Part shown: piece by piece, positions 26,931 to 27,052 of the stretch
Position numbering within the stretch: position 1 is the first letter of the stretch
Layout of the letters: each line of letters begins with the position of its first letter
DNA from: Escherichia phage UE-M6
DNA length: 64,000 nucleotides
Sequence record: PP301343.1
Direction: 5' to 3' (one strand)
The notes under the pieces: generated by a model
The model's database searches: none
Told to the model about the DNA's origin: nothing
What the model saw: the letters and a program-made list of their open reading frames with translations, nothing else
Translations under genes and position numbers: made by a program

Positions 26931-27052
26931 TTATCAGTGAAGGATTCGAACCTCCGGTTGGAGTCTATAGCTTACCGCAGCAGCCCTCCAATCTAGCGGT
27001 GTCACACTTAGTCCAAACTTGAACATGTCAAGCCATCTCGTGCAACTGATAA
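26931..27052 (-). ncRNA. Long tRNA-like element (about 121 nt) with acceptor-like helix and T-arm
   Basis: 8-bp inverted repeat ttatcagt / actgataa in acceptor position relative to a canonical T-arm GGAGG-TTCGAAT-CCTTC; too long for a standard tRNA. Confidence 0.35.

Follow-up and report, generated by a model that had tools for sequence, protein, structure and literature searches.

What does a stretch of phage DNA encode when it carries the acceptor helix and T-arm of a transfer RNA (tRNA) gene but is about 45 nucleotides (nt) too long to be one? The question is raised by an element at positions 26,931 to 27,052 of the 64,000-nt stretch of DNA from Escherichia phage UE-M6 that was analyzed here (record PP301343.1; hereafter the window). 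An initial annotation had described it as a tRNA-like element in which an internal helix of 6 base pairs (bp) could form an anticodon arm carrying a small intron. We propose, with moderate confidence, a different reading, in which the element encodes a stable, tRNA-like RNA of about 121 to 124 nt that would not decode and would be excised from an RNA-only operon of about 2.3 kb. This proposal is based directly on sequence features, covariation, conservation, the operon context, and the lack of an anticodon arm.

A repeat search recovered exactly the 8-bp inverted repeat on which the initial annotation was built (I1, TTATCAGT/ACTGATAA; 26931-26938 and 27045-27052; 8 nt, 100% complementary, 106 nt between the arms). 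The T-loop motif GGTTCGAATCC was located at 26942-26952 on the minus strand, and the sense strand of the RNA is therefore the minus strand. Read in this direction, the element has the order UAUCAGU-UG-CACG-(D-loop with hairpin)-UGUG-...-GGAGG-UUCGAAU-CCUUC-ACUGAUA-A-CCA. The whole tRNA-like RNA gene, as delimited by the self-hit of covariance model R1, covers 26928-27051 on the minus strand, corresponding to 124 nt including an encoded CCA; column n of our alignment corresponds to window coordinate 27052-n. The acceptor stem is formed by UAUCAGU (27045-27051) and ACUGAUA (26932-26938, an arm of I1). Seven of the eight pairs that had been assigned to this helix are conserved. The eighth, in which a flanking U stands opposite the discriminator A, is not conserved, the outermost T being replaced by C in phage PhAPEC7. 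The discriminator and the encoded CCA (26928-26931) read ACCA in all 13 variants of the alignment described below (A3).

The T-arm, GGAGG-UUCGAAU-CCUUC with a 5-bp stem (26939-26955, assigned by its match to the T-loop motif), is canonical and placed relative to the acceptor helix as originally claimed. The D-arm, read from the sequence, extends over 27003-27042 and has a putative 4-bp stem, CACG/UGUG (27039-27042 with 27003-27006), and a loop of 32 nt, in comparison to 8 to 11 nt in canonical tRNAs. This loop keeps A14, G15, and the GG at 27013-27014 (columns 38-39). Inserted in its 5' variable part is a 7-bp hairpin of 19 nt, GGCUUGA-CAUGU-UCAAGUU (27016-27034), which was identified by covariation and could project from the elbow of the molecule. 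The nucleotides required for tertiary contacts in tRNAs are present, including U8, A14, G15, the D-loop GG, C48, and G53-C61; C48 is positioned just before the T-stem, where pairing with G15 is possible. The tRNA-like nature of the element was borne out for the acceptor, A73, CCA, T-arm, and tertiary-contact nucleotides; with the candidate D-stem, these make up a frame that is complete apart from the anticodon arm, which is missing. The segment from the D-stem to the T-arm measures 47 nt (columns 50-96), compared to the usual 22 to 40 nt or so. The excess of about 45 nt over a tRNA is real, but it resides in two places, the D-loop hairpin and the enlarged anticodon/variable region, rather than in one.

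Alignment A3 comprises 13 distinct variants from Gamaleyavirus and Kaypoctavirus phages and from IMG/VR and metagenome copies; 5 further variants were compared in addition to A3. No insertions or deletions occur among the 18 variants, and nearly all of the differences between them fall in helices with pairing preserved. The acceptor stem, D-loop hairpin, and T-stem of the 13 variants have 442 cells, of which 99.8% are paired and 16 are changed on both sides. None of 500 shuffles reached the observed values, and all slid registers yielded zero double changes. Changes on both sides affect five pairs, distributed over the three helices. In the acceptor stem, pair 3-118 alternates between CG and UA, pair 4-117 likewise, and pair 5-116 between AU and GC, with all acceptor cells remaining paired. 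In the D-loop hairpin (columns 18-24 with 30-36), pair 21-33 changes from UA to CG on both sides, while pair 18-36 occurs as GU, GC, or AU and pair 24-30 as AU or GU. The T-stem pair 99-111 changes from AU to GC on both sides in phages ECBP1 and Bp4.

The window derives from an N4-like Escherichia coli podophage of the genus Gamaleyavirus (Schitoviridae). A blastn search against 50,697 phage records returned 42 matches to the element, all of them in Gamaleyavirus (96 to 100%) or in KP8-like Klebsiella phages of the genus Kaypoctavirus (about 87%), and most of the differences in the Kaypoctavirus copies are compensatory. The element is present in every Gamaleyavirus relative examined at 95 to 97% identity, whereas the spacer just downstream of it is 64 to 73% identical. 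Compensatory changes and conservation over a divergent spacer therefore argue for a functional structured RNA and not for a pseudogene or a coding open reading frame (ORF). Pattern scans of IMG/VR and metagenomes yielded near-identical copies only, and the element sequence had no match in E. coli genomes or in 185,579 bacterial and archaeal genomes. Searching about 0.8 Mb of phage loci with R1 returned only ordinary or odd tRNAs, scoring 26 bits or less; one helix was mistyped in this model, which is harmless for close matches and reduces its reach. No Rfam family, including tRNA, tRNA-Sec, transfer-messenger RNA (tmRNA), and YrlA, was found on the element at the gathering threshold or at E ≤ 10. 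The element is an unannotated, conserved, structured RNA without an Rfam family, limited to two genera of N4-like phages.

The region between the D-stem and the T-arm contains two candidate helices. Helix 4, ACCGC/GCGGU (26974-27000; 26996-27000 with 26974-26978; columns 52-56 with 74-78; minus strand), starts at the position of an anticodon stem but closes a 17-nt loop. Its energy is -7.5 kcal/mol alone, and its only variation is a single A>G change, after which a G-U pair remains. Helix 5, UUGGAG/CUCCAA (26958-26991; 26986-26991 with 26958-26963; columns 61-66 with 89-94; minus strand), is the TTGGAG/CTCCAA repeat (I3) that had been noted initially, and both its coordinates and the 22 nt between its arms were confirmed. 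It amounts to -7.0 kcal/mol alone and to -12.3 kcal/mol with an inner extension. Since the two helices cross each other, they would form an H-type pseudoknot or represent alternative folds. Neither of them gives a 7-nt loop with U33. The core of the element (columns 38-97, about 60 nt) varies at only four positions (52, 59, 67, and 68) among the 18 variants of the two genera. The stems covary while the core is nearly invariant, and the ends therefore appear to be constrained in shape and the core in sequence.

The genomic context of the element is consistent with an RNA gene. From about 28340 to 26000, the window is without a convincing protein gene. ARAGORN and Rfam identified two minus-strand tRNAs in this region, tRNA-Ile(aat) (26273-26348) and an odd tRNA (26355-26430), which ARAGORN reported as tRNA-??? 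with a two-base "anticodon" (ac) and which passes in Rfam with 42.8 bits. An intrinsic terminator on the minus strand (26000-26031), consisting of a 13-bp stem followed by TTTTTTATTT, closes the RNA-only operon; no comparable minus-strand terminator was found within 28300-26031. The element is a member of this minus-strand operon of about 2.3 kb, which ends at the terminator at 26031-26000. The T-arm motif GGTTCRANTCC occurs seven times in the 64-kb window, in all cases on the minus strand and within 26286-27208, compared to an expectation of 0.15 from shuffles, and its presence in the element is therefore not due to chance. Five of the seven T-arm-bearing genes of the operon, the element being one of them, were missed by ARAGORN and Rfam. 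The operon is laid out as a string of tRNA-like modules with conserved non-tRNA segments between them. A comparison of window positions 26000-28340 with the corresponding loci of close relatives (L002 to L011) revealed that it is modular, with tRNA-like modules being present, absent, or reordered, and that the element, tRNA-Ile, and two unassigned segments are constant. The module boundaries recurrently read AACCAAUU, possibly a recombination or processing junction.

According to the proposed mechanism, the element would be transcribed from the minus strand within the RNA-only operon, and the acceptor stem, T-arm, D-arm, and tertiary-contact nucleotides would fold into a tRNA-shaped acceptor and elbow. 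RNase P would cut at the 5' end, and an endonuclease together with exonucleases would act at the 3' end, at the A/U-rich ACCA/AUU junction (the slash marks the end of the CCA), yielding a mature RNA with a CCA end. The full junction after the CCA of the element is AACCA/AUU, and the same junction follows the other CCA-ended modules of the operon. It is similar to the sites at which endonucleases cut E. coli tRNA precursors beyond the CCA. Instead of an anticodon arm and a variable loop, the RNA would have a sequence-invariant module of about 45 nt, folded as a pseudoknot or as a long irregular hairpin, and because this two-helix module takes the place of the anticodon arm, the RNA would be unable to read a codon. 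The likeliest mechanism, we infer, is molecular mimicry, with the RNA acting as a decoy, sponge, or scaffold for a tRNA-binding factor of the host or the phage. The tRNA-like half would recruit this factor and provide stability and processing, and a sequence-specific contact would come from the invariant core. An RNA of this kind, which is tRNA-shaped and has an invariant core other than an anticodon, may represent a new class of phage effector RNAs (decoy, sponge, or scaffold), the targets of which could be the host translation or tRNA-surveillance machinery. It follows as well that the gaps left by tRNA finders in phage tRNA clusters, whether blank or filled with a "hypothetical protein," can hold conserved tRNA-mimicking RNAs.

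Several points weigh against this proposal. The expression, processing, three-dimensional fold, binding partner, and biological effect of the RNA are deduced from its sequence. The single sequence has an ordinary folding energy (z = -0.45), and 2 of 10 metagenome copies read AUCA, i.e., UCA in place of CCA. The family is narrow, being confined to two related genera with no distant homologues found, so that helices 4 and 5 and the CACG/UGUG D-stem are invariant and lie beyond covariation testing. The conservation of the family could partly be due to recent exchange of phage cassettes. In addition, complementarity of the element to 16S, 23S, or 5S ribosomal RNA or to the host ssrA tmRNA was no better than that of shuffles.

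The alternative that survives best, although we regard it as unlikely, is that the element serves mainly as processing punctuation or as a scaffold, its tRNA-like shape recruiting RNase P and 3' enzymes and thereby freeing its neighbors, for example, a tmRNA-like RNA located upstream in the operon (hereafter the tag RNA). The alternation of tRNA-like modules with conserved non-tRNA segments and the recurrent AACCAAUU junction fit such a role, and the acceptor and T stems evolve by covariation, as a function in shape only predicts. However, punctuation needs no more than an acceptor/T-arm minihelix and leaves both the nearly invariant core of about 60 nt and the covarying D-loop hairpin unexplained.

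There is little probability that the element is a decaying tRNA pseudogene, functionless now and derived, e.g., from tRNA-Tyr, tRNA-Ser, or another tRNA of class II. The best non-self matches of R1, besides the odd tRNA of the window (25.1 bits), are long tRNAs or tRNA-like sequences of 80 to 88 nt scoring 24 to 26 bits, and neighboring modules such as "tRNA-Cys(ACA) pseudo" are annotated as pseudo-tRNAs. The T-arm of the element also presumably resembles that of E. coli tRNA-Tyr. A decaying gene is at odds, however, with compensatory substitutions that maintain three helices and with an element that is kept in all relatives beside a far more divergent spacer and is free of insertions and deletions.

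The tag RNA raises the question of whether the element has a partner in the same operon. This RNA of about 275 nt (27270-27545, minus strand) was detected as a match to the Rfam family tmRNA_permuted with 32.7 bits and an E value of 2.8e-4, which is below the gathering score. It is unannotated and directly adjoins the element in phages E20, PhAPEC7, and ST4 and in KP8-like phages. The match rests on a resume context of the tmRNA type and the frame that follows it (...CAUAAAU GCA AAC GAU GAU GUU GUU CUG AUG GCA GCC UAA). This tag frame (GCA..UAA; 27390-27358, minus strand) encodes ANDDVVLMAA* in 10 codons, followed by UAA UAA. It is without a start codon, an in-frame UAG lies 8 codons upstream, and hairpins follow the stop. 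The 5' end of the tag RNA carries a covarying hairpin or pseudoknot that is closed by a helix of 19 bp.

The same subthreshold match to tmRNA_permuted was obtained in eight other phage loci, and parts of the 276-nt tag RNA query match 568 phage records. Among the matches listed, the tag segment is covered in P1, SJ46, T1-like phages, Vi01-like Ackermannviridae, Mooglevirus, and Pylas; the tag RNA is almost never annotated in them and is always located in or beside tRNA clusters, on the tRNA strand. The P1 copy (AF234172, 68899-69062) lies between a dicF-like region and tRNA-Asn, in the leader of the ban operon. The tags of the family include ANDDLMMVAA, ANDDLMLMAA, ANEEMYLA(A/V)A, ANDEQFLAVA, and ANDDLMLAAA, and the terminal Ala-Ala codons vary synonymously. 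No canonical tRNA-like domain (TLD) with a G3:U70 pair was found to accompany the tag RNA. Published lists of phage tmRNAs contain only mycobacteriophages, Bacillus phage G, and DS6A (PMC4131195), and a 2025 update counts 79 phage sequences (PMC11915505).

Many N4-like phages have orphan T-arms downstream of the tag RNA, but other phages do not always have them. In the versions from Humphriesvirinae (Pylas, locus L013, and SP-058, locus L014; positions ~1110-1230), the long 5' helix encloses tRNA-like hairpins with a T-arm, UUAGG-UUCAACU-CCUAA, the loop of which is identical to the T-loop of E. coli tmRNA. This tRNA-like part would not be chargeable as drawn, because the closed "acceptor" runs on into the tag region. 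In the T1-like Salmonella phage Akira (locus L015, ~1440-1585), the tag RNA is followed at a distance of about 200 nt by a tRNA-like RNA of about 150 nt that ARAGORN does not call. This RNA combines a canonical D-arm (GCUC-AAUGGC-GAGC) and T-arm with a long insert at the place of the anticodon. The design of the Akira RNA is like that of our element, whereas the sequences are unrelated.

Just 5' of its own resume codon, the tag RNA contains a segment (27413-27443, minus strand) that is antisense to nt 68-107 of E. coli ssrA, an interval that comprises the 3' strand of PK1, the resume codon, and tag codons 1 to 5. The antisense match of the window copy is made up of three colinear blocks, a perfect one of 10 bp and two of 8 and 12 bp (UAGUUUUCGU / GCGAUUAU / UGCGGUUUUUUA versus ACGAAAACUA / AUAGUCGC / UAAAAAGCCGCA in ssrA). 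When tag RNAs were aligned locally to the reverse complement of E. coli ssrA and compared to 300 shuffles, the same ssrA interval was always found in P1, Akira, SP-058, Sf14, and Bue1, with 0, 0, 0, 2, and 3 of the 300 shuffles being as good, respectively. P1 and T1-like, Ithacavirus, Mooglevirus, and Erwinia phages are represented among these family members. The signal was weaker for Ag3 (14/300) and for the window (32/300, in which the 10-mer alone was aligned). The antisense segment fits the tag codons of the host better than those of the phage itself. This suggests that the tag RNA may pair with the host tmRNA, either blocking it or substituting its own tag template. A rival reading is that the segment belongs to an intramolecular PK1-like pseudoknot, with which some covariation between the N4-like and T1-like forms is consistent. 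The GAG-codon pattern TAGTCGCAAACGACGAGAAC, predicted for Erwinia phage Bue1 if its antisense segment tracked the ssrA of its host, was absent from all of the genomes scanned, and host tracking thus received no support. The tag RNA may be a more important lead than the element: with matches in P1, T1-like, Vi01-like, and Felix-like phages, it would represent, if functional, an unrecognized form of phage interference with trans-translation.

Against this background, the element could be viewed as the tRNA-like half of a phage ribosome-rescue module that delivers or competes with the tag RNA, e.g., via SmpB or EF-Tu, a possibility that we consider improbable. The two RNAs share an operon, the element directly follows the tag RNA with its resume codon and tag frame in several relatives, and all 13 variants of A3 co-occur with the tag RNA. 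Like a TLD, the element is without an anticodon arm and ends in ACCA, and TLD-only RNAs of phage DS6A have been reported to inhibit tmRNA whether or not they are chargeable (PMC4131195). On the other hand, the alanine identity pair G3:U70 is absent, position 3:70 being U-A, C-G, or U-G in all variants. A candidate D-stem is present, unlike in TLDs, no Rfam match of the tmRNA families overlaps 26928-27051 at E ≤ 10, and the 5' and 3' ends of the element pair and covary with each other. The tag RNA occurs without the element in Pylas, SP-058, P1, and T1-like phages, and its anti-ssrA match suggests that it would use or block the TLD of the host instead. The best complementarity between element and tag RNA amounts to 12 bp, of which 5 to 7 are G-U, in a segment that is conserved even where the element is missing. 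This G-U-rich 12-mer was all that a stem search returned, and we judged it unconvincing. A second candidate, the 5' segment UAUCAGUG of the tag RNA as a trans partner of the 3' strand of the element, was rejected because no covariation is observed in KP8. The link between the element and the tag RNA is weak.

A broader version, in which the whole operon rewires the ribosome rescue of the host through multiple RNAs, with the element and its aberrant siblings as cofactors or decoys, appears more improbable still. If it were true, the tag RNA would pair with the host tmRNA through its anti-ssrA segment and offer its own resume codon and ANDDVVLMAA tag. The cofactors or decoys could be directed at SmpB, EF-Tu, a synthetase, or defense toxins that aim at the CCA end, and the element would be part of a new multi-RNA module for translational takeover.

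We also assessed the reading that the initial annotation had invited, a true decoding tRNA from which one or two small introns or insertions are removed after transcription. It is very improbable, even though the acceptor, D-stem, T-arm, and CCA are all tRNA-grade. The 22-nt loop enclosed by the TTGGAG/CTCCAA helix begins with GG and lacks U33, and one excision cannot leave a 7-nt loop, so that the anticodon arm with a small intron had to be abandoned. The element contains no 5-bp stem with a 7-nt anticodon loop, nor can one be restored by removing one segment. Its excess length lies in two separate places, and a loop with U33 and R37 is not obtained by any one excision. At default thresholds, ARAGORN did not call the element with its intron search either on or off, and RF00005 gave no match to it at E ≤ 10 (gathering threshold, 29 bits). 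With the setting -ps70, ARAGORN could be forced to produce a tRNA-Thr(ggt) with a 45-nt intron and an anticodon stem of 3 bp. This model was rejected, because it reuses the covarying hairpin (columns 18-36) as D-arm and anticodon stem and thereby destroys it, contrary to the covariation. No Rfam intron family matched in the region. The introns known from bacterial and phage tRNA genes belong to the self-splicing group I type and measure at least about 200 nt, roughly 10 times the length of the inserts observed here; a group I core would not fit into inserts of 19 nt and of about 30 to 45 nt. Furthermore, E. coli is not known to have a tRNA splicing endonuclease.

The idea that the locus contains no RNA gene, but a small protein ORF or a hairpin signal at the DNA level, is hardly credible: an ORF of 94 amino acids (26934-27218, minus strand) or an internal frame of 31 codons overlaps the element and some GenBank records annotate a "hypothetical protein," but the N-terminal two-thirds of this ORF lie in modules missing from ST4, PhAPEC7, and E20, its internal AUG is AUA in ST4, the helix-paired substitutions would be non-synonymous, the T-loop consensus and ACCA are an RNA signature, and N4 virion-polymerase promoters, as small hairpins with 5- to 7-bp stems and 3-nt loops, are unlike the element.

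Besides the element, four orphan T-arm motifs are spread over three aberrant tRNA-like genes of the minus strand that were not called by ARAGORN or Rfam. The first (27266-27187) is a tRNA-Cys(ACA)-like form with a mismatched anticodon stem, which carries the GenBank label "pseudo" in ECBP1. The second (~27133-27053), found by its orphan T-arm motif, is a 63-nt RNA plus CCA that is without a D-arm and has a hairpin with a UGCA tetraloop; its T-stem and inner hairpin show compensatory changes relative to Klebsiella phage KP8. Both the pseudo-Cys and the short module are missing from ST4, PhAPEC7, and E20, and the short module is placed downstream of the element in KP8. The third (~26842-26728) is an RNA of about 115 nt with two orphan T-arm motifs that ends in GCCU, and its acceptor GGUGGG/CCCACU shows compensatory changes to GGCAAG/CUUGCC in KP8. 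The odd tRNA at 26355-26430 has a shortened, non-standard anticodon loop, is labeled tRNA-OTHER or tRNA-Thr in GenBank, and is missing from several relatives.

The non-coding stretches 27546-28340 and 26431-26711 (minus strand) are 92 to 96% identical across Gamaleyavirus. They contain obvious long-range helices, for example, UUUGAGGUG...CACCUCAAA at ~26715-26615 and GGGAGG...CCUCCC near 27560, and look like further structured RNAs; a small ORF of about 58 amino acids is located near 28116-27940, in the stretch 27546-28340. Region 25900-28300 as a whole is 99.4% identical to phage UE-S5b. The ORF of 3456 amino acids at 14417-24787 is the counterpart of the giant UE-S5b gene annotated as "RNA polymerase," and its predicted product is the N4-type virion RNA polymerase.

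Comparison with known systems places the proposed tRNA-like stable RNA at some distance from each of them. Class II tRNAs (RF00005) share with it a 7-bp acceptor, the discriminator and CCA, a 5-bp T-stem with a 7-nt loop, U8/A14/R15/GG/Y48, and, as a candidate, a 4-bp D-stem. The element differs in having no 7-nt anticodon loop, in its 19-nt D-loop hairpin, and in its length of 121 nt without CCA, versus at most 95 nt. The TLD of tmRNAs, including the TLD-only RNA of mycobacteriophage DS6A, resembles it in the T-arm, in ACCA, and in the lack of an anticodon; the element is phage encoded and lies beside a tag template. Unlike a TLD, the element has no G3:U70, has a candidate D-stem, and has ends that pair with each other and not with the tag RNA. 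YrlA or bacterial Y RNA-like RNAs (RF02553) are likewise non-coding, contain a module that mimics T- and D-arms, and are in some cases phage encoded. They have a Ro-binding stem formed from the termini and no CCA end, unlike the element, on which no Rfam match to YrlA was found.

The closest analogue is the species 1 RNA of phage T4, the relationship being one of analogy and not of homology. T4 rnaC (species 1, 139 nt) and rnaD (species 2, 119 nt) are annotated in GenBank as small stable RNAs at the distal end of the tRNA cluster. Like the element, they lie on the tRNA strand of a phage tRNA cluster and are longer than a tRNA. T4 rnaC contains a tRNA-like domain of 95 nt (AF158101; locus L209, 1407-1501, minus strand) with a 7-bp acceptor, CGGAACG/CGUUUCG, and a T-arm, CCGGG-UUCGAAU-CCCGG, and rnaD ends in CACC(A). 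In contrast to the element, rnaC is extended by 44 nt at its 5' end and lacks an encoded CCA, and it belongs to a different phage family. R1 scores rnaC at 12.5 bits, below T4 tRNA-Leu and tRNA-Thr, and no sequence homology between the two was detectable. We had also suspected by eye that rnaD might be a homologue of the tag RNA, but an nhmmer profile of the tag RNA found nothing in the T4 region. To our knowledge, the function of the T4 species 1 and 2 RNAs has never been established. The element is a variant of these poorly understood tRNA-like stable RNAs of phages and offers a tractable E. coli system in which the role of the T4-type species 1 and 2 RNAs can be revisited.

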